Shown here piece after piece: positions 5,461 to 59,796 of a DNA stretch of 64,000 bases. This DNA comes from Escherichia phage vB_Ec-M-J. The DNA lies in sequence record OQ718158.1, one strand, 5' to 3'. Numbering within the stretch: the stretch's first letter is position 1; each line of letters opens with the position of its first letter. The position numbers and the translations under genes were made by a program. The notes beneath the pieces are model-generated. The model was not told where the DNA came from. It saw nothing but the letters and a program-made list of their open reading frames with translations, and did not search any database.

Positions 5461-5481
5461 TGGTATAGTACAGTGAAAATA

Positions 5482-5513
5482 GGGTTGACTTCGGTCAACC
5501 TTTTCTTTATACT
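5482..5513 (+). terminator. fused terminator-promoter module
   Basis: GGGTTGAC-TTCG-GTCAACC then T-run and TATACT. Confidence 0.6.
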
Positions 5514-5520
5514 ATAAATA
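5513..5520 (+). promoter_or_regulatory. T4-type late promoter motif TATAAATA (tentative)
   Basis: exact TATAAATA about 25 nt upstream of 5542 start. Confidence 0.3.
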
Positions 5521-5541
5521 TAGTCATAGAGAATAAACAAT

Positions 5542-7053
5542 ATGAAATCTATGGAGAGAAATCAAATGCCAGGTCAATTTACTGATAAAAATGGCGGGAA
5601 CATGGCAGGTCACTCTGATAAATGGAGTGAACGCAATCGTCGTCAAAATAGCTACCAAGCAGGACAGGGGTCACGTGGTTCACGTAATCAAGGGACAGGT
5701 TTAGCTGGTAAGGCAAACGCAGAAGCAGGTGAAGTTAAGAGTACTGAGAACATGACTGAGCTAGAAAAGCTACGTTATGTTAACTCATTAGGTCTTCTTA
5801 ACGCAACACAGAAACAACGCCTTGCTGATATGGAACGTGCTGAGAAAGAACAAGAAGTTCCTAAAGAAGAACCAAAACCAGAAGCTCCTAAAGCAGCTAA
5901 CCCTGTTAAAGAGTTATCTGATAACTTAGGTAAGATCTTTGCTAACAAACCACAGTTGATTCAGGGTATTGTCAAAGCACTACAGGCAGTTCCTAAAGAA
6001 GAACTCAAAGGTAAAGCACAAGCTGTACTTGATGCAATGAAAGGTAATAAGAGCACTGAACCTACTGAAGTATTCAGTACTATCATGCGTGCACTTGAAG
6101 GTACACACAAAGAAGATTCCAAAGAACCTGAACAGGGTGAAGCAAGTCTTGATGGTATTCTTAAAACTTTTGATAGTATTGGTAAAGCAGACCGTGCTAA
6201 TGCCCAGCAAGTCAAGAATGTACTGGCTAAACTTGAAAACCGTTTAGAAGGTAAAGATGATAAGGTTAAGCTCGTATCAGATGCAGTTAACAGTGCACTT
6301 AAATCTTATGTACAAGGTGAGAAAAGTCGCTTCGTAACAGCTATGGATGCTGCATTCAACACTATGAAAAAGTATGAAGCAGAACATGGTGAGAAAGTGA
6401 CACCTGATGGATATCTACTACGTAAAGATGAAGAAGGTGCAGTTGAACAGAAAGATGTTGAGCCTGAGCAAGAAGATCTACCTGATACCGTTGATATGGA
6501 TGGATACATTCATCGTCCTGAGATGGAAGAGTTTGGGTCAGATAAAGAAGGTTTTGAACATGCAATGGCAGTATATAAAGCATTAGTTAAAAATCCAGAT
6601 TATGCTAACCGTTTTGTTGACGAGTTTGATAGTGCATGGAATAACTACAAAGAGAAAGGTTATGATTTCCCTGCTGAAGCTGCATTCTTTGAACTTGGTA
6701 AACTATTAGCTAAACATGGAATTGACGTTGGTTCATCTGATTCCGAAGGTATGGAAGAAGAACATCTTGAAATGACTGATAAATCAATTCATGAACTTCA
6801 AAAGTTAATGATGTGGATATCCGAGATTGGTAAAAAAGCAGGTGCTGATAGTAAAAGTATCAACAAAAATATTAGTTGGATTAAAGATAATGTTGGTAAC
6901 AATGCTCGTAAACTTCAAAAGGCTTGGGCTGATTTAGTAAATGGTGCAGATGATGTTGACATTGAATCACCAGAAGCATATGAGTATGCACTAACTACAC
7001 TTGATAACTCATTCAAAGAGTACGACCGTGGTGTTGGAAAGGATAAAAAATAA
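5542..7053 (+). CDS. acidic K/E-rich 503-aa protein (hypothetical; candidate late/virion protein)
   Basis: longest plus-strand ORF in part 1; TATAAATA at 5513; shares SLGLL motif with 4311..4694. Confidence 0.7.
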   Translation: MKSMERNQMPGQFTDKNGGNMAGHSDKWSERNRRQNSYQAGQGSRGSRNQGTGLAGKANAEAGEVKSTENMTELEKLRYVNSLGLLNATQKQRLADMERAEKEQEVPKEEPKPEAPKAANPVKELSDNLGKIFANKPQLIQGIVKALQAVPKEELKGKAQAVLDAMKGNKSTEPTEVFSTIMRALEGTHKEDSKEPEQGEASLDGILKTFDSIGKADRANAQQVKNVLAKLENRLEGKDDKVKLVSDAVNSALKSYVQGEKSRFVTAMDAAFNTMKKYEAEHGEKVTPDGYLLRKDEEGAVEQKDVEPEQEDLPDTVDMDGYIHRPEMEEFGSDKEGFEHAMAVYKALVKNPDYANRFVDEFDSAWNNYKEKGYDFPAEAAFFELGKLLAKHGIDVGSSDSEGMEEEHLEMTDKSIHELQKLMMWISEIGKKAGADSKSINKNISWIKDNVGNNARKLQKAWADLVNGADDVDIESPEAYEYALTTLDNSFKEYDRGVGKDKK

Positions 7054-7062
7054 ACATTTAAA

Positions 7063-7100
7063 AGGTTGACTTCGGTCAACCTTTTTTTGTAAATATTGTA
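7063..7100 (+). terminator. terminator hairpin of module type
   Basis: AAAGGTTGAC-TTCG-GTCAACCTTTTTTT. Confidence 0.65.
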
Positions 7101-7124
7101 GAGGGTTTTATAAGAGGTAATGCA

Positions 7125-7376
7125 ATGTTTAAATATGTTTTATTTTCACTTGTATTGTTTACTGATATAGTTTATAGTACTGAATACCAGTGCTCCATTG
7201 CTAGACAGGAGTTTAGAAACGGTGAGTTCTATACCAAGTCTTACACTAGAGGATTGGTACATGACAATAATAAAACTATAGGGTTCAATGCATTTGATAA
7301 CAAAGATCGATATACGTCTGGAATACTATCTGAACGTAAGTCTGATATACTAGGTATCGAGCGTGAATTCCGGTGA
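7125..7376 (+). CDS. secreted hypothetical protein (signal peptide)
   Basis: N-terminus MFKYVLFSLVLFTDIVYS; GAGG RBS. Confidence 0.5.
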   Translation: MFKYVLFSLVLFTDIVYSTEYQCSIARQEFRNGEFYTKSYTRGLVHDNNKTIGFNAFDNKDRYTSGILSERKSDILGIEREFR

Positions 7377-7386
7377 CACGGTTGCA

Positions 7387-7737
7387 ATGTGTAATGATAT
7401 TGAGAGTACTAAGAAAGTATATACTAATGGTGAAAATACTTTTAGATTCCACAATCTTACTACTAATGAAAGTTTATACTTCTACAACTGTAAAGAGTTC
7501 ATTAAACCTGTGGATAACTCATGTGATATGCCGGAGCCAAAAGCTGCTGTATGTGAGGAACCACAATCCAAAGCTGACAAAGATTCAAAAGATAAGAAAG
7601 ACAAAGCTGACAAATCGGATAAAAAAGAAAACAAAAAGAAAGCTAAAGATGATAAAGATAAAAAGTCCCCTAAGCCAAATCCATTTGAAAAGCCAAAGAA
7701 TGAAAAGCCAAAACCAGACATGACATGTAAAATATAA
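7387..7737 (+). CDS. hypothetical protein with Lys/Asp-rich low-complexity tail
   Basis: track ORF 7363 (GTG) trimmed to first ATG; may be a frameshifted continuation of 7125..7376. Confidence 0.4.
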   Translation: MCNDIESTKKVYTNGENTFRFHNLTTNESLYFYNCKEFIKPVDNSCDMPEPKAAVCEEPQSKADKDSKDKKDKADKSDKKENKKKAKDDKDKKSPKPNPFEKPKNEKPKPDMTCKI

Positions 7738-7742
7738 AAGAA

Positions 7743-7777
7743 AAGGGTTGACTTCGGTCGGCCTTTTTTGCTATAAT
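7743..7777 (+). terminator. fused terminator-promoter module
   Basis: GGGTTGACTTCGGTCGGCC then TTTTTTGCTATAAT. Confidence 0.6.
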
Positions 7778-7803
7778 CATTTCATCAACTACTGGAGGCA
7801 AAC

Positions 7804-8217
7804 ATGTTAAAAGTTATTTTCCGTTCTATCAGTTCATTACTTCTTATGATTAGTTCAGTTTGTTATGCAAATGAAGTATCTGATTTATTTGAGAAGAATT
7901 ACCCAACTGCACAAGAGATGGGTGTTTTAAAATGCAAGCTAACTTCGTACAACATCATCGGCAGTAAACTTGTACTAGAACATGAACGTAGTACACCAAT
8001 CCCTCTAGTAGAAGAAGGTAGTACCTTTAGCTTCAAGTACGGGGTGAACGTAACATCTGGTGTAATGAACAATGTTGATGCAGAGACTGGTTCAACATGG
8101 AGTACTAGCGGTAAAGATGTGTTTCATCGTATGCGTGAAAATGGTAAACTGAAGTACGTATATGAAAGTTCATTCATGAAACGTGTATTCATTATAAAAA
8201 ATTGTGTACCAGCATAA
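7804..8217 (+). CDS. secreted hypothetical protein (signal peptide)
   Basis: N-terminus with hydrophobic core before CYA; GGAGG RBS. Confidence 0.55.
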   Translation: MLKVIFRSISSLLLMISSVCYANEVSDLFEKNYPTAQEMGVLKCKLTSYNIIGSKLVLEHERSTPIPLVEEGSTFSFKYGVNVTSGVMNNVDAETGSTWSTSGKDVFHRMRENGKLKYVYESSFMKRVFIIKNCVPA

Positions 8218-8513: not shown

Positions 8514-8852
8514 ATGGAACAACATTTTGAATTAATTAATAAGGTATCATTTTATGTAGTATCATTAATTTGGGTGTATTACATGTTTTGTTACATTATT
8601 GCATTCTTCCGATACACGACCTTGTATCAACGCATATACTACGATGCACCCATTTCATTTATGATGTTCTGTGCATGTACGTGGGGGATAATTGAAGCAC
8701 TGGTATGTGGATATAGTACTGACGAATTAAATCTCGTATCGGGGTTGACATTACTAACAATTGCCATTATGATAGCTACTGTTCCGATATTTTTGCTCTT
8801 TAAACTGCTTCATCGTATCGATGAGTGGCGTAATAAAATCCCTGAAAAGTAA
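8514..8852 (+). CDS. small multi-pass membrane protein, family A paralog 1
   Basis: about 112 aa, hydrophobic, C-terminal basic tail ending KIPEK; tandem with two paralogs. Confidence 0.6.
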   Translation: MEQHFELINKVSFYVVSLIWVYYMFCYIIAFFRYTTLYQRIYYDAPISFMMFCACTWGIIEALVCGYSTDELNLVSGLTLLTIAIMIATVPIFLLFKLLHRIDEWRNKIPEK

Positions 8853-8861
8853 GGATTGATA

Positions 8862-9203
8862 ATGATTTTTTACACTAATGCGTTTGCTTATGCCGTTGCA
8901 TCAATCTACATTGTGTACTTCTTATTTGGTGGAGTACTGTACTTCTTTAAGTACAAAACATTGTTTAACCGAATGTATCCAAATCACCCAATTGTAGTAG
9001 TACTTTTGATGATTTCTGTTGCTCACATCATTGTAGAAACAATAATGGGTATCAGTGCAGTACATTACAGTCTAGGTACTATTGTGATTATTACTATGAT
9101 CATCGCATACATTTTAGTAATGGGTTCTGGTTTATTTGGGAATGTAGCAATGAAATTGTATAATCGAATTAAAACCTTACGTGATAATCTACCGGAGCGT
9201 TGA
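8862..9203 (+). CDS. small multi-pass membrane protein, family A paralog 2
   Basis: track ORF (TTG) trimmed to ATG; tail ends NLPER. Confidence 0.6.
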   Translation: MIFYTNAFAYAVASIYIVYFLFGGVLYFFKYKTLFNRMYPNHPIVVVLLMISVAHIIVETIMGISAVHYSLGTIVIITMIIAYILVMGSGLFGNVAMKLYNRIKTLRDNLPER

Positions 9204-9204
9204 G

Positions 9205-9549
9205 ATGTATAATTTAAATTTAATCTCATATATCATAACAACACTGTTTACTTTCTATACCTTTGTCGGTATACTCCTACTGTACTTTAAATTTTATAAA
9301 CTCTTTGACCGTTTATATCCATCATTGGAACATGAATTCTTATTGGTGATGTACATCTGTTTAACGTGTATGTCTACATTTTTCACTGTATTTGATGGTA
9401 TCATCGGTATTAAAGCTGAAGATCCAAATGGCAGTACACTTGTTGCCTTTATCCTGGTAGGATTCTTCGGTACTTATATCACTTTCATTTCAACATGGTC
9501 TGTGGTTGATTATCTCATTAGATTACGAGATAAAATGCCAAATCGATAG
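9205..9549 (+). CDS. small multi-pass membrane protein, family A paralog 3
   Basis: track ORF (GTG) trimmed to ATG right after upstream stop; tail ends KMPNR. Confidence 0.6.
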   Translation: MYNLNLISYIITTLFTFYTFVGILLLYFKFYKLFDRLYPSLEHEFLLVMYICLTCMSTFFTVFDGIIGIKAEDPNGSTLVAFILVGFFGTYITFISTWSVVDYLIRLRDKMPNR

Positions 9550-10197: not shown

Positions 10198-10225
10198 TTG
10201 ACAAACTCATTCAGTACTGTATAAT
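10198..10225 (+). promoter_or_regulatory. sigma70-type promoter followed by 5' GC hairpin (10235..10255)
   Basis: TTGACA-N16-TATAAT; hairpin GGGGATGAACTTCTCATCCCC. Confidence 0.6.
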
Positions 10226-10272: not shown

Positions 10273-10827
10273 ATGATTACTTTTAAGAAAACTGCTAACC
10301 ACATCCATGAGATCTACATTAACGGTCACAAAGCTGGCCTTCTTCGTTTACTCGCCCATCATCCGAATATTACCGTATCTGATAATGAACCTAAAGATTG
10401 GCGTGTATTTTTCTTTGGAAAGTACAGTGATTTTCAAGTATCAAACCTGAAGAACATTCGTTCAGTATGCACGTTAACTGAAATTAAAGAAAAGTTAACC
10501 AAAGCATTGAAAACTAATCCAGATGGTGTTCTTCCACCTGATAACTTTGTAGAGAAAGGATATGCCTTAGCTCATTTCAAAGATGGTACTATTCAATCTA
10601 TCAGTACTGAATATGAATATCAATGGACTGAGTACTTCACTTATGGATCGCGTAATACATTGATGGCTTCACGTAGTAAATTGGAAGAAGTACTGACTCG
10701 TATGAATGAACGCGAGCGTCAGTACTATGACAAACCAGAAATGTGGAGTTCAACTTACATTGACCGTATTGACTATGTTATTATGACTCCAATCTTTGAC
10801 ACTGCTTACTATGATTCTTTGAAATAA
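10273..10827 (+). CDS. hypothetical protein
   Basis: 184-aa ORF behind TTGACA-N16-TATAAT promoter and 5' GC hairpin. Confidence 0.6.
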   Translation: MITFKKTANHIHEIYINGHKAGLLRLLAHHPNITVSDNEPKDWRVFFFGKYSDFQVSNLKNIRSVCTLTEIKEKLTKALKTNPDGVLPPDNFVEKGYALAHFKDGTIQSISTEYEYQWTEYFTYGSRNTLMASRSKLEEVLTRMNERERQYYDKPEMWSSTYIDRIDYVIMTPIFDTAYYDSLK

Positions 10828-10838
10828 GGATAACTTAT

Positions 10839-11015
10839 ATGAAACTACGTACTCGTAATCGACTGATGGATGCACTGTACCATGAACAGCTTTCACTGAA
10901 TGAAGTGAAGCGACAGTTAATGTACACATATCTGTTACCCGCTCGCATTGCAAAACAACGTGCTAAAGAATTGCTGAAAGAAGCAATCGAGTACTGGGAA
11001 TCTGATTCGTACTAA
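10839..11015 (+). CDS. small hypothetical protein (58 aa)
   Basis: hand-found ORF below track threshold; AAGGA RBS. Confidence 0.35.
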   Translation: MKLRTRNRLMDALYHEQLSLNEVKRQLMYTYLLPARIAKQRAKELLKEAIEYWESDSY

Positions 11016-11043
11016 TTGTCACGTTAATTAAGTGAGGCGATAA

Positions 11044-11295
11044 ATGAAAATTTTATTAGTTCTAATACTACTAATTGTTTTACCATTTACGTTAGTATCC
11101 CCTGAACTTGCATGGAATGTGTTTGTGTACTTACTATGTACTATGATAGTAAATGGTATCTTGTTCTTAGTTCTATTCATAAATGGAATAGGACACGGTG
11201 GAGGATGGACCAGTACTGCTGATATTGTACATAAAACCACTATGTCTTTATTTGTAGTGTGGAATTTATTCTGGACTTGGTTTGTGTTCTTCTAA
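11044..11295 (+). CDS. small membrane protein (hypothetical)
   Basis: 83-aa hydrophobic ORF; GAGG RBS. Confidence 0.5.
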   Translation: MKILLVLILLIVLPFTLVSPELAWNVFVYLLCTMIVNGILFLVLFINGIGHGGGWTSTADIVHKTTMSLFVVWNLFWTWFVFF

Positions 11296-11305
11296 TTAAA
11301 AAAAT

Positions 11306-11677
11306 ATGAATATAGATTTGAAAGGTGCAACACGAACTGTCATACTCATTGGGGAATATGCTATCAAGATTCCAACCTTTAAAAGTTGGAAGCTATTCTT
11401 AACAGGGATGATAGCTAACCTCAATGAACGTTCGTGGATGCAGTACTCCAAGCGTAGTGATACTGGTATCTGTCCTACTTTGTGGTCATCATGTACTGGA
11501 CTAGTAACTGTACAGAAACGTTGTAAGCCAGTACAACATAGGGGTTTATTTTGGGTGGAGTTGTGTGCTTTAGCATTGAATTCAGAGTTAAGTACTGACT
11601 TCTTCTATTCAGATGCGAAGCCAGAAAACTTTGGGTATCTGTGTGGTAAGTTGGTTAAACTTGATTATGGAGATTAA
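11306..11677 (+). CDS. mini protein-kinase-like protein (hypothetical)
   Basis: YAIKIP (beta3 Lys-like), DAKPEN (catalytic-loop-like), KLDYGD (DFG-like) in kinase order; weak RBS. Confidence 0.45.
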   Translation: MNIDLKGATRTVILIGEYAIKIPTFKSWKLFLTGMIANLNERSWMQYSKRSDTGICPTLWSSCTGLVTVQKRCKPVQHRGLFWVELCALALNSELSTDFFYSDAKPENFGYLCGKLVKLDYGD

Positions 11678-11678
11678 T

Positions 11679-11948
11679 ATGTACGCATTGTATAATAAAG
11701 AAAAGAAACGATTTGCTAAGGTTGAAATTTCGATTGATACATTTGATATGTTGGAGTACTGTATTGTAACGGACTTATATGCTAACTTGTATTACGTTCT
11801 TGATGACGTATCAGTACTGCAACGATTGCTTGAGAATTCCAAAAGTCAATGCCAGGGCATCCATGATGGTTCATCTTATGAAACACCTGAGTGTTCCTAC
11901 GGCTATCTGGACGGGTATGAGATTGTGAAGTTGGGGATTGTTGAATAA
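11679..11948 (+). CDS. hypothetical protein
   Basis: track ORF trimmed to ATG immediately after upstream stop. Confidence 0.45.
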   Translation: MYALYNKEKKRFAKVEISIDTFDMLEYCIVTDLYANLYYVLDDVSVLQRLLENSKSQCQGIHDGSSYETPECSYGYLDGYEIVKLGIVE

Positions 11949-11960
11949 ATGGATTAAACA

Positions 11961-12374
11961 ATGAAGAAGTGTATCACGTGTAATATTGAAAAAGACATTA
12001 GTGAATTTGGTATAAGAAGTGATACTGGGAAACATAGAAATACATGCAAAGGTTGTAGTAATATTACCAGTAAGAAAACCAGAAATAAAAAAACTGATGT
12101 CAAAAAACTTGAAGAAATCAAAAGAAAAAATAAAGATTTCATGACCAGAGTTAAATCATTTTATGGTTGTAGTGTTTGTATGATGAAGTATCCAGAATGT
12201 TTAGACTTTCACCATCTTGACCCTAATACCAAAGAACATACACCAAGTTCTATGTTCAGTAAAAGTCGAGATGCTATCAAAGATGAAATTCGAAAGTGTA
12301 TGATTCTTTGTTCTAATCACCATCGCATGGTACATTCTGGTAGACTATGTTTGATTGAAAGAAAAAAGGGTTGA
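11961..12374 (+). CDS. HNH endonuclease (homing-endonuclease-like)
   Basis: Cys pairs plus HHLDP...CSNHHRMVH, an HNH-type motif; stop lies inside terminator hairpin. Confidence 0.75.
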   Translation: MKKCITCNIEKDISEFGIRSDTGKHRNTCKGCSNITSKKTRNKKTDVKKLEEIKRKNKDFMTRVKSFYGCSVCMMKYPECLDFHHLDPNTKEHTPSSMFSKSRDAIKDEIRKCMILCSNHHRMVHSGRLCLIERKKG

Positions 12375-12400
12375 CTTCGGTCAGCCCTTTTTGCTATAAT
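12366..12400 (+). terminator. fused terminator-promoter module
   Basis: AAAGGGTTGAC-TTCG-GTCAGCCCTTTTTGCTATAAT; HNH gene stop lies in stem. Confidence 0.65.
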
Positions 12401-12428: not shown

Positions 12429-12944
12429 ATGACACGCATTAACTTAGTACACGTTAAAGAACTTGCTGACCAACATCTGATGGCTGAATATCGTGAACTC
12501 CCACGTGTGTTTGGTGCTGTACAAAAACATGTTCAAGCACGTAAGCGAGTCCGTGATTTCAAAATTAACAGTACTTACCTGTTAGGTTCAGGTCATGTAA
12601 CATTCTTCTACAACAAGTTATTGTACTTACAGAAGCGTCATATTGATATTGTTAACGAATGTTTGCGTCGTGGTATGAAGATTCAAAACACTGAAGTAAA
12701 CGACATTAGCGGATTCCCTGCTGAGTTTTGTAATGACTACGTACCATCGGAGTCAGAGATTAAAATGTCTCGTGAGCGTTTGATTGAGAAGCTCCAGATG
12801 AAGCCTACGTGGTATAAATTTACTGACGTTGAACGCCCACAGTACGTTAAAGATATGCAGGACGTAAGTAGTAATATAGAATCTAGTACTGATATGTTAG
12901 ACGAAATTGAAGAACAAATCAAAGATGAAATGAATAATTATTAA
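12429..12944 (+). CDS. denV: endonuclease V, pyrimidine-dimer DNA glycosylase (T4 DenV homolog)
   Basis: N-terminus [31 protein letters not shown] matches T4 DenV as recalled from memory. Confidence 0.85.
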
Positions 12945-57754: not shown

Positions 57755-57849
57755 TAGAATCCATTTAAAGTACTATTTGACATTGCCCAGATAGTACTTT
57801 ATAATAGACTCTAACTTGTAGTACTAACTCAACTAATAGGATGTATACC

Positions 57850-58306: not shown

Positions 58307-58561
58307 ATGATTAAGGTTCAACTATCAAACGATAATGTATTACGGGTACACTATAAAGCACCTCAGAGAATCATCACAAAGGCCGTACAGCTTGCTAATG
58401 AGTTTATTAATGGTAACCTATTACCTAGGAAGTTAAGCAACGGGAAACTGCGTGTAATCGACGTGGACACTAACAACAGGATAGTAATCGAGAACACAGG
58501 AAAGATAAACCTTTATGAGCATCAACAATACAATAAGAAAATAAAACTAATATCACGTTGA
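58307..58561 (+). CDS. small ORF (hypothetical)
   Basis: 84-aa track ORF; AGGA RBS. Confidence 0.5.
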   Translation: MIKVQLSNDNVLRVHYKAPQRIITKAVQLANEFINGNLLPRKLSNGKLRVIDVDTNNRIVIENTGKINLYEHQQYNKKIKLISR

Positions 58562-58614
58562 CAGTACTCAATTGTTTTAGTACTATGTACACATACCAAC
58601 ACGGGAGAAACAAA

Positions 58615-58833: not shown

Positions 58834-58890
58834 TTGACAGTACTCAAATGTTTTAGTACTATATGTACATACCAACACGGGGGAAACAAA

Positions 58891-59133
58891 ATGATTACTT
58901 TAGAAAAACGTATCAAAGAAACTACATCGCTGGTGGAACTGTTAACAGTACTCAAATGTAAAACAACACCATTCAGCACGCCGGACTTTATTAATATGGT
59001 TGATGTTAATGGTCGCTATCGTATCACGGTCGAACAAGGAGCGGCGAAAGTATTCAGTACTAAAAACACTAAGGAAGTGATCCACGCCGTTAATGTTAAA
59101 AAAGTAGTTGCCATTGATAGTAAAGTACTGTAA
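58891..59133 (+). CDS. small ORF, promoter-duplicate partner of 58615..58833
   Basis: track ORF trimmed to ATG after GGGGGAAAC. Confidence 0.5.
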   Translation: MITLEKRIKETTSLVELLTVLKCKTTPFSTPDFINMVDVNGRYRITVEQGAAKVFSTKNTKEVIHAVNVKKVVAIDSKVL

Positions 59134-59164
59134 TATAGTTTCATTAACTCAAGGAGAACATGCA

Positions 59165-59749
59165 ATGCGTAATTATACTAAATTCATCCGTACACTGTCA
59201 GAAATGGAAACCAACAAAGAGATCCTTTCAGCTTGTCGGTTAGCTGGACTGGAGATCATCGGTGCTGGTTCTTCCCGTATAGTATTCGCTTTAAATGATC
59301 GGTTAGTGATTAAGGTCGCGAATTGTGATGCGGGTGTAGAACAAAATGAAACTGAATGTAAGGTATGGAATTTTTTAGACTATGACCGCCCTCAGTTGAA
59401 ACAGTACTTTGCAAAGGTGCATATGCATTTATGCGATCCTGATAATATGTTTATCGTTATGGATCGGTTGAGTACTGCAAGTAAAGGCAGTGTGAAGCAC
59501 GTTAACGCGTGCAATGAATTAAAGTACAATATTAAACGTAATGCAATTGAACGCCAGCACCGCTTTGCTGATGCACTACAACACGTCGATGATACATTAT
59601 CAACACTAACGATAAGAGATATCAGAAAACAGAATATCGGCCAGGATCGTAATGGCCTTATTAAAGTACTTGATTACGGTTTAACCTGCAATATCTGGAA
59701 TCAGTACTATAAAAAGCGTGATGTGGCAGCAAGTAAGGTAACACGATAA
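59165..59749 (+). CDS. mini protein-kinase-like protein (putative)
   Basis: IGAGSSRIVF (Gly loop), VIKVA (Lys), IRDIRKQNIG (catalytic loop), KVLDYG (DFG-like); AAGGAG RBS. Confidence 0.5.
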   Translation: MRNYTKFIRTLSEMETNKEILSACRLAGLEIIGAGSSRIVFALNDRLVIKVANCDAGVEQNETECKVWNFLDYDRPQLKQYFAKVHMHLCDPDNMFIVMDRLSTASKGSVKHVNACNELKYNIKRNAIERQHRFADALQHVDDTLSTLTIRDIRKQNIGQDRNGLIKVLDYGLTCNIWNQYYKKRDVAASKVTR

Positions 59750-59763
59750 AAAAGATTAAAAAA

Positions 59764-59796
59764 GGGATTGACTCCGGTCAGTCCCTTTGCTATTAT
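59764..59796 (+). terminator. fused terminator-promoter module, UCCG-loop variant
   Basis: identical to module at 56489. Confidence 0.6.

Follow-up and report, generated by a model that had tools for sequence, protein, structure and literature searches.

Two small kinase-like genes of an Asteriusvirus-type coliphage: probable paralogues from a large phage family with a shortened kinase architecture

Kinases used by phages as broad counter-defence weapons are known from one family, represented by T7 gp0.7 and JSS1_004. The gp0.7 kinase (T7K, PHROG 2828) was described in a 2026 paper as a hyper-promiscuous kinase that disarms defence systems (PMC13645617). Its family has a DP(V) motif where DFG would stand, with a conserved Ser after it, and distant homologues were reported from jumbo phages, Escherichia phage G17 among them (PMC13645617). 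Here, two very small kinase-like open reading frames (ORFs), designated ORF-S (11306..11677) and ORF-L (59165..59749), are analysed in a stretch of 64,000 nt from Escherichia phage vB_Ec-M-J (sequence record OQ718158.1; one strand), referred to below as the window.

The window derives from an Asteriusvirus-type jumbo coliphage (121Q/PBECO4 group) and shares 95-99% identity with the roughly 350-kb phages WPEC3, fEgEco12, 121Q, G17, Sharanji, and PBECO4. In this group, the Sharanji orthologue of ORF-L (WNN14351.1) was termed 'another protein kinase, which function is unknown' (PMC11895373), and a few GenBank records also give the ORF-L orthologue a kinase label; ORF-L is thus a small kinase already noticed, and uncharacterised. 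The orthologues of ORF-S listed are all 'hypothetical protein', and automatic kinase labels are found on a few distant short-form homologues. ORF-S and ORF-L are intact, separately translated paralogues that belong to PHROG 4301 and fall within the superfamily of protein-kinase-like (PKL) proteins. To the reading as a whole, in which they act early in infection as unregulated phosphotransferases, we assign a probability of roughly 0.6. ORF-S in particular represents a large family, so far unannotated, whose kinase architecture is radically shortened.

PHROG 4301 and its kinase architecture

Both proteins match the hidden Markov model (HMM) of PHROG 4301 (ORF-S with E=9e-43 over profile positions 40-167 of 225; ORF-L with E=4.3e-41 over positions 13-185 of 225), as does gp036 of Pseudomonas phage ZC01 (E=1e-50). 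This PHROG is annotated as 'unknown function' and has no Pfam or NCBIfam counterpart: Pfam matches above threshold were obtained for none of 23 members, and NCBIfam returned nothing. ORF-S has no match to Pfam PF00069 or PF07714 and none in PADLOC. ORF-L reaches E=0.0035 against Pfam Pkinase (17.2 bits, below the gathering cut-off of 31.7) and yields weak, generic kinase matches in PADLOC (PD-T4-6, E~1e-3), and the profile of its family matches the canonical kinases MKK4 and MKK7 with E=1.6e-4 to 8e-4.

A first-pass annotation of the window had picked out kinase motifs in both ORFs, and these are present as described. ORF-S carries YAIKIP (residues 18-23), DAKPEN (103-108), and KLDYGD (118-123) in kinase order, and ORF-L carries IGAGSSRIVF (32-41), VIKVA (48-52), IRDIRKQNIG (150-159), and KVLDYG (167-172). 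When all six reading frames were searched with a profile, exactly two copies turned up in the window, in agreement with the second copy proposed at 59165-59749. The quoted motifs correspond to invariant columns of the family alignments, namely the G-loop, the beta3 Lys, the alphaC Glu, the catalytic-loop Asp and Asn, and the Mg-binding Asp. When the short and long groups are aligned jointly (ORF-S numbering), G7, R10, V12, K21, G34, N38, E41, D103, G110, D120, and G122 are invariant and N108 is nearly so. With family matches, conserved lengths, and invariant motif columns, the motif observation stands far above chance.

The catalytic residues of the PKL superfamily are complete in both proteins (K21, E41, D103, N108, and D120 in ORF-S; K50, E64, D152, N157, and D170 in ORF-L), and the bilobal PKL fold is recognizable in a five-stranded N-lobe sheet with alphaC, followed by alphaE, the catalytic loop, and the beta7/beta8 hairpin. 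The spacing of the motifs, 20 residues from K to E and 17 from D to D, is near the canonical kinase values, for which PKA numbering was used. The values listed for known kinases were 8.8 for JAK, 8.3 for TTK, 8.1 for BRAF, and 8.0 for PknB, followed by APH(2'') (7.9), Rio2 (7.7), Bud32 (7.5), the RNA kinase Ark1 (7.1), OspG (7.0), and HopBF1 (6.5). The kinase-like interpretation of the first-pass annotation is supported, with the catalytic Lys and Asp conserved in homologue alignments and a predicted kinase-like fold.

As had also been noted, both proteins are much shorter than canonical kinases (123 and 194 amino acids (aa)), with an incomplete C-lobe. ORF-S consists of an N-lobe (beta1-beta5 and alphaC), alphaE, the catalytic loop, the beta7/beta8 hairpin, and the DYG motif with the Mg-binding Asp, at which point the protein ends. 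An activation segment, a P+1 loop, and helices alphaF-alphaI are missing; with its C-terminus 3 residues past the DFG Asp, ORF-S lacks the complete Hanks C-lobe (APE, alphaF Asp, alphaG-alphaI). ORF-L, which ends 24 residues past this Asp, likewise has no complete Hanks C-lobe. To the shared core, it adds a two-helix extension at the N-terminus, some 45 residues inserted between beta5 and alphaE, and a single helix after DYG at the C-terminus.

These lengths are kept across wide evolutionary distances. In word-indexed searches, homologues of ORF-S measured 118-127 aa down to 45% identity, and those of ORF-L 191-212 aa down to about 41% identity. The ratio of nonsynonymous to synonymous substitution rates (dN/dS) relative to close relatives is about 0.2 for ORF-S and 0.04 for ORF-L, indicating purifying selection, albeit from small counts. 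An exhaustive profile search of 1.84 billion representative proteins returned 2,118 clusters at E<=1e-3, 678 of them at E<=1e-10; the top 150 clusters are mostly 110-135 aa long and match through the last profile position. In a conservation alignment of 165 family members, each of at most 220 aa, the C-terminus lies only 2-3 residues past the DFG Asp in 108. Lys21 is retained in 163 of the 165, Glu41 and Asp120 in 164 each, and all five catalytic residues in 128. A further 26 members show a coupled change in the catalytic loop, from D-x-K-P-E-N-F-G to E-x-K-x-[DN]-S-F-G; in this E...S sub-family (e.g., P0060, P0076, P0080, P0084, and P0085), the Lys and the remaining motif set are kept. The coupled Asp-to-Glu and Asn-to-Ser pattern, together with the retained residues, fits a functionally constrained active site. 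The truncation is a feature of family architecture rather than damage.

Homologues of ORF-S were found in 117 records from many phage families. The short form occurs in T4-like phages (JS10, IME341, and the BASEL phage Bas45/PaulHMueller), Vequintavirinae (A7_1), Felixounavirus (SPJ41), the N4-like phi G17, jumbo phages of Aeromonas, Erwinia, Klebsiella, and Ralstonia, and 57-58 kb siphophages of Pseudomonas and Xanthomonas (NP1, PaMx25, and ZC01). In lambdoid Salmonella prophages, a lone 123-aa short-form gene (45% identity) is located between the Rz lysis gene and the terminase gene Nu1, a typical moron position. A genome-contig scan with the pattern A1 gave no match, the pattern being too narrow. 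Our literature searches turned up no account of kinases of about 120 aa that form a family and have their C-terminus at the DFG motif.

Two further observations concern the form of the gene. A few close relatives have no more than partial or split copies of ORF-S, as seen in phage TH47 (MT446416.1), in Salmonella phage SD-1_S14 (OR699183.1), and in the BFVD entries A0A2Z5HG44 and A0A2Z5HGC2; these comprise residues 44-123 or 61-123, or fragments of 84 aa and 38 aa, at 97% identity, and reflect either occasional gene disruption or assembly errors. Metagenomic proteins of 490-969 aa (P0034, P0081, P0093, P0104, P0110, and P0155) form tandem 'poly-kinases' of 2-4 long-form units, each with its own G-loop, VLK, QNxxE, and LLDYG. 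The only contig recovered for P0034 (4.8 kb) was uninformative as to context.

Predicted activity and alternative readings

Gene integrity, family membership, conservation, and a predicted fold are shown by the present data; catalytic activity, expression timing, substrates, and biological role are proposals drawn from them. Both genes very probably code for proteins of the kinase fold whose nucleotide and Mg site is intact, and it is likely, with rather less assurance, that ORF-S and ORF-L are active phosphotransferases. In the mechanism proposed for ORF-S, ATP would be held under the G-loop (Gly7-x-Thr-Arg10), its phosphates would be positioned by Lys21 paired with Glu41, and Mg2+ would be bound by Asp120 and Asn108. 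Asp103, aided by Lys105, would then direct transfer of the gamma-phosphate in a Ser/Thr-kinase-type D-x-K-x-x-N loop. As they lack both an activation loop and a conserved Arg ahead of the catalytic Asp (as in non-RD kinases), the enzymes are expected to be unregulated; because there is no peptide-binding groove, they are expected to be promiscuous or partner-dependent. The substrate site would be open and poorly selective, or substrates would dock via a bound partner. The most likely function is thus that of small, unregulated phosphotransferases acting early in infection, and their most likely role would be to phosphorylate targets of the host or of the phage in the course of takeover or counter-defence, as experiments showed for the T7 gp0.7 kinase. 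By analogy, such a role through protein phosphorylation is put forward tentatively, at somewhat less than even odds. It is more doubtful again that the form of about 120 residues is a self-sufficient protein kinase with catalytic activity, below the size of every kinase-like protein matched here or found described.

Several points weigh against this interpretation. The Pkinase matches found in 5 of the 23 family members are weak (best E=0.003), and none reaches the Pfam gathering score. A short-family profile built from 15 sequences found no matches among PDB sequences, and one built from 130 sequences matched only TTK, non-significantly. All matched kinases of solved structure are longer than 123 aa, even the 'minimal' OspG (169) and Ark1 (173 resolved residues); that 123 residues suffice for catalysis is unproven for this reason. 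The minimal kinases OspG/NleH, HopBF1, and Ark1/ArkI keep helices after the DFG motif and, to the best of our knowledge, so do all solved kinases matched here. In kinases, alphaF anchors the hydrophobic spines; a 123-aa protein without alphaF may therefore be inactive alone or need a partner. The AlphaFold model of ORF-L, built from 14 sequences, is poor (predicted local distance difference test score, 59) and was therefore kept out of the fold searches, and the active-site geometry proposed above is deduced from motif order. Early expression is suggested by the position of both genes in short operons behind sigma-70-type promoter matches, which are matches to the consensus only. A literature search found no biochemical data for any phrog_4301 member. 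Finally, the family recurs beside genes for nucleic-acid enzymes (denV, Rnl2, DNA ligase, and polymerase), a possible pointer to a substrate other than protein.

To look for a conserved partner gene, 347 flanking ORFs from 33 loci were clustered and annotated contexts in nine phage lineages were inspected. No universal or conserved partner gene was found among these ORFs; denV, encoding endonuclease V, is the only neighbour family common to unrelated lineages (Asteriusvirus and Nipunavirus). In the window, denV (12429-12944) begins about 750 nt downstream of ORF-S, and in NP1-type phages (NP1, locus L053, 2402-3312) the end of the mini-kinase gene overlaps the start of denV. In JS10 (L054, 2477-3854), the mini-kinase gene directly precedes the RNA ligase 2 gene rnlB; it is beside DNA ligase and polymerase genes in SPJ41, beside a DNA polymerase gene in A7_1, and near a tRNA cluster in Bas45. 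In other lineages it is found amid unannotated ORFs. The nucleic-acid theme, and with it a link to repair, is suggestive but not conclusive. ORF-S might on this basis be a kinase-fold phosphotransferase with a non-protein substrate, be it an end or a sugar hydroxyl of a nucleic acid, a nucleotide, or another small molecule, working beside phage nucleic-acid repair and modification enzymes. We regard this as unlikely: the D-A-K-P-E-N catalytic loop is a Ser/Thr protein-kinase signature, the best sequence and structure matches are the protein kinases TTK, JAK, BRAF, and PknB, and no neighbour is conserved across lineages, with a hydrolase in ZC01 and unrelated genes or none in PS1, phi G17, and the Salmonella prophage. 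Moreover, nucleic-acid genes are abundant in phage early and middle regions anyway.

Less probable still is that the proteins are non-catalytic pseudokinases that bind ATP or another nucleotide and serve as regulators, decoys, or inhibitors of a host protein. The truncation does remove the helix that organizes the active core of canonical kinases, stoichiometric inhibition is common among small phage early proteins, and no activity has been reported for family members. Typical pseudokinases, however, lose at least one of the Lys, the catalytic Asp, and the DFG Asp, whereas here 163-164 of 165 diverse members retain these residues, and variation at the catalytic-loop Asp and Asn occurs only as a coupled pair. 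Phosphotransferases of PHROG 4301 remain our preferred reading.

It is very improbable that ORF-S and ORF-L are jumbo-phage members of the T7K family with its hyper-promiscuous anti-defence activity. G17, a close relative of the window, was reported to have distant T7K homologues (PMC13645617), the ORF-L family is co-linear with the T7K alignment (an N-terminal helix and AG[LF]xxxGxG, VIKV, D....N, and the final Asp in register), and the T7K kinase domain likewise ends no more than a few dozen residues beyond its DFG-equivalent motif. Neither protein, however, matches phrog_2828 even at E<=10, and hhalign of the profiles A2 and A3 against a nine-member T7K alignment is weak (E=0.007 and 0.004; probability 5-9%). 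A comparison by hhalign with T7K alone gave no significant support, and the A3 profile matches T7K with E=0.12. Both window proteins have DYG where T7K-family members have an invariant T-D-P, and the DP(V)-then-Ser motif is found in neither. Phmmer against the PBECO4 protein described below gave no significant support for membership either, and from the weak hhalign statistics T7K is taken as the closest functional analogy rather than as the family.

For this phage group, the actual T7K-like gene proved to be a third one, not significantly similar to ORF-S or ORF-L, which was identified indirectly for the G17 group through PBECO4 (AGC34999.1) and Sharanji (gp144/WNN14432.1). Its 224-aa product carries DIHSSN and ITDPLS and matches T7K with E=6e-11. 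In close relatives of the window (Sharanji and PBECO4), some 3 kb separate this gene from the ORF-S operon, upstream of which it lies. In the window, unrelated sequence at 7497-8214 (within the context 5476-8215) replaces the segment with gp144, its upstream neighbour gp145, and the end of gp146; the T7K-like kinase is missing from this syntenic site. The replacing sequence holds the end of a Lys/Asp-rich ORF (7363-7737) and a 137-aa ORF (7804-8217) with a signal-peptide-like N-terminus.

Least probable of all is the split or frameshifted kinase gene raised in the first-pass annotation, in which ORF-S would be an N-terminal half and 11679..11948 would supply the C-lobe by frameshift fusion or as a second subunit: the two ORFs are indeed adjacent, 1 nt apart (TAA stop at 11675-11677, next ATG at 11679), the 89-aa ORF has a frame that stays open upstream as far as about 11592, and most of the C-lobe is missing from ORF-S, but the 89-aa protein matches a separate family, phrog_8563, from residue one (profile positions 2-97 of 97), and has no kinase match in Pfam, PADLOC, or NCBIfam. 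That family is restricted to Asteriusvirus and RaK2-like phages (38 phage records, versus 117 for the kinase) and is absent beside distant ORF-S homologues, whose downstream genes are unrelated to it or lacking, as with the stand-alone copies in Salmonella prophages. Most family members share the endpoint of ORF-S, the paralogue ORF-L likewise stops early, and the same pair of 372 nt and 270 nt is annotated in the independently sequenced 121Q, EC.P1, and Sharanji. Many independent genomes have the stop codon of ORF-S in common, which makes resequencing around 11677 superfluous. The stop codon of ORF-S and the GGAG-preceded start that follows it indicate translational coupling of two genes. The split gene was therefore rejected, and the overall interpretation of the first-pass annotation is partly supported.

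Gene organization and expression signals

The features of both loci are collected in Table 1. The promoter match at 10198..10225 is a candidate promoter for an operon at 10273..12374 that includes ORF-S; the next strong match, at 12371-12400, is upstream of denV. The match at 58834..58862 precedes an 80-aa gene (58891..59133) and ORF-L, and a near-identical element is found at 58558-58586. For ORF-L, 59165 was taken as the start rather than the TTG at 59108 because of the GGAG 8 nt upstream and because its homologues all begin with MRNYTKF or M..[YF]RKF.

Table 1. Positions of the two kinase-like genes, their motifs, and associated features (window coordinates unless a locus is named)
Feature	Position	Strand	Remarks
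Sigma-70-type promoter match TTGACA-16-TATAAT	10198..10225	+	12/12; consensus match only
ORF-S, short-form mini-kinase, 123 aa	11306..11677	+	
ORF-S G-loop	G7/T9/R10		
ORF-S beta3 Lys21	11366-11368		
ORF-S alphaC Glu41	11426-11428		
ORF-S catalytic loop D103-A-K-P-E-N108	11612-11629		
ORF-S Mg-binding D120-Y-G122	11663-11671		Followed by one residue and the stop codon
Ribosome-binding site GGAG of the 89-aa gene	11670-11673	+	Precedes ATG 11679
89-aa gene	11679..11948	+	Translationally coupled to ORF-S, not a kinase part; phrog_8563, E=9e-25, full length
Sigma-70-type promoter match TTGACA-17-TACTAT	58834..58862	+	10/12; consensus match only
Ribosome-binding site GGAG of ORF-L	59153..59156	+	8 nt upstream of ATG 59165
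ORF-L, long-form paralogue, 194 aa from ATG at 59165	59165..59749	+	
ORF-L G-loop G33-A-G35-S-S-R38	59261-59278		
ORF-L Lys50	59312-59314		
ORF-L Glu64	59354-59356		
ORF-L catalytic loop D152..N157	59618-59635		
ORF-L D170-Y-G172	59672-59680		
Terminator-like hairpin	59761..59788	+	12-bp stem, directly after ORF-L
Salmonella enterica prophage copies	L003, L004: 3001-3372; L005: 1736-2107		About 400 nt non-coding downstream

The hairpin after ORF-L is overlapped by a promoter-like TTGACT-17-TATTAT with an extended -10 TG (59768-59796), whose -35 TTGAC lies within the stem. With promoter matches in front and this hairpin behind ORF-L, the two loci show a layout usual in early regions, as judged from consensus matches only. 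The repeated TTGACA-17-TACTAT elements (58558-58586 and 58834-58862) precede successive small genes and give rise to spurious TTG-started extensions ('MTVLNCFST...' and 'MTVLKCFST...'), and perfect 12/12 consensus promoters occur at 57777, 60199, and 10198. To judge by these repeated promoter sequences, many short transcription units make up what looks like a region of early genes.

Other observations concern nearby genes. Between the 89-aa ORF and denV, a gene at 11961-12374 encodes an HNH homing endonuclease (phrog_2255, E=9e-32); it looks like a mobile insertion because it is absent at the 121Q/Sharanji site, where denV directly follows the 89-aa gene. On another contig (L006, 1159-1524), a Tad2-like gene (PF11195, an anti-Thoeris sponge family) is located four genes upstream of the mini-kinase gene of homologue P0025, which hints at a counter-defence gene neighbourhood. 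Three consecutive ORFs upstream in the window (8514-8852, 8856-9203, and 9181-9549; 112, 115, and 122 aa) end in similar C-terminal tails (...WRNKIPEK, ...LRDNLPER, and ...LRDKMPNR) and look like tandem paralogues encoding multi-pass membrane proteins.

Significance and comparison with known kinases

If the short form is a self-sufficient kinase, the activation segment and helices alphaF-alphaI would be dispensable for phosphotransfer, and the 123-residue protein would be among the smallest kinase-like proteins described, setting a new lower size limit for the catalytic core. Such activity would challenge the view of alphaF as an indispensable scaffold and would be relevant to kinase evolution and protein design; if a partner is needed instead, its identification would bring to light a novel means by which a kinase is completed in trans. 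With a self-sufficient short form, the family of more than 2,000 clusters would constitute a second widespread class of unregulated phage kinases for takeover or counter-defence, spanning T4-like, rV5-like, FelixO1-like, N4-like, jumbo, and temperate phages and overlooked by surveys with Pfam or T7K models. The finding points to PHROG 4301 as a second kinase-like family, much larger and more widely distributed, that current annotation misses, nearly all of its GenBank entries being given as 'hypothetical protein'. Members in model collections such as BASEL (Bas45) make these predictions directly testable, and the family is a candidate source of phosphorylation when phosphoproteomes of phage infection are interpreted.

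Among known systems, Hanks kinases (TTK/MPS1, MKK4/MKK7, and PknB; PF00069) share with this family the N-lobe topology, the beta3 Lys, the alphaC Glu, and the D-x-K-x-x-N loop. DAKPEN in ORF-S corresponds to DLKPAN in TTK, and the DFG-type Asp-aromatic-Gly motif and the inter-motif spacing are also alike. Unlike Hanks kinases, ORF-S has nothing after DFG (no activation segment, APE, or alphaF-alphaI) and ORF-L has only about 24 residues past the Asp; moreover, the G-loop of the family has only one glycine, after which comes an invariant Thr/Ser-Arg, and alphaC holds an invariant G-x-x-x-N-x-x-E. The reduced kinases OspG/NleH, HopBF1, and archaeal Ark1/ArkI have resolved chains of 169-216 residues, compared with 123 for ORF-S, and show no detectable sequence relationship with the phage mini-kinases. 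OspG/NleH and HopBF1 are type III-secreted effectors that act in eukaryotic cells, Ark1/ArkI are archaeal tRNA-modifying enzymes, and none are phage genes.

T7K differs from the two proteins in belonging to another PHROG, with no significant HMM or phmmer match between them, and in having DPV in place of DYG and DMHSGN in place of DAKPEN; it also carries a C-terminal DNA-binding shut-off domain. Like ORF-L, it is a phage-encoded kinase-like domain with a short C-lobe, laid out as N-terminal helices, AG[LF]..G.G, VIKV, an insert, D....N, and a terminal Asp. With its early expression and an anti-defence role shown experimentally (PMC13645617), T7K provides the best functional analogy for ORF-S and ORF-L.

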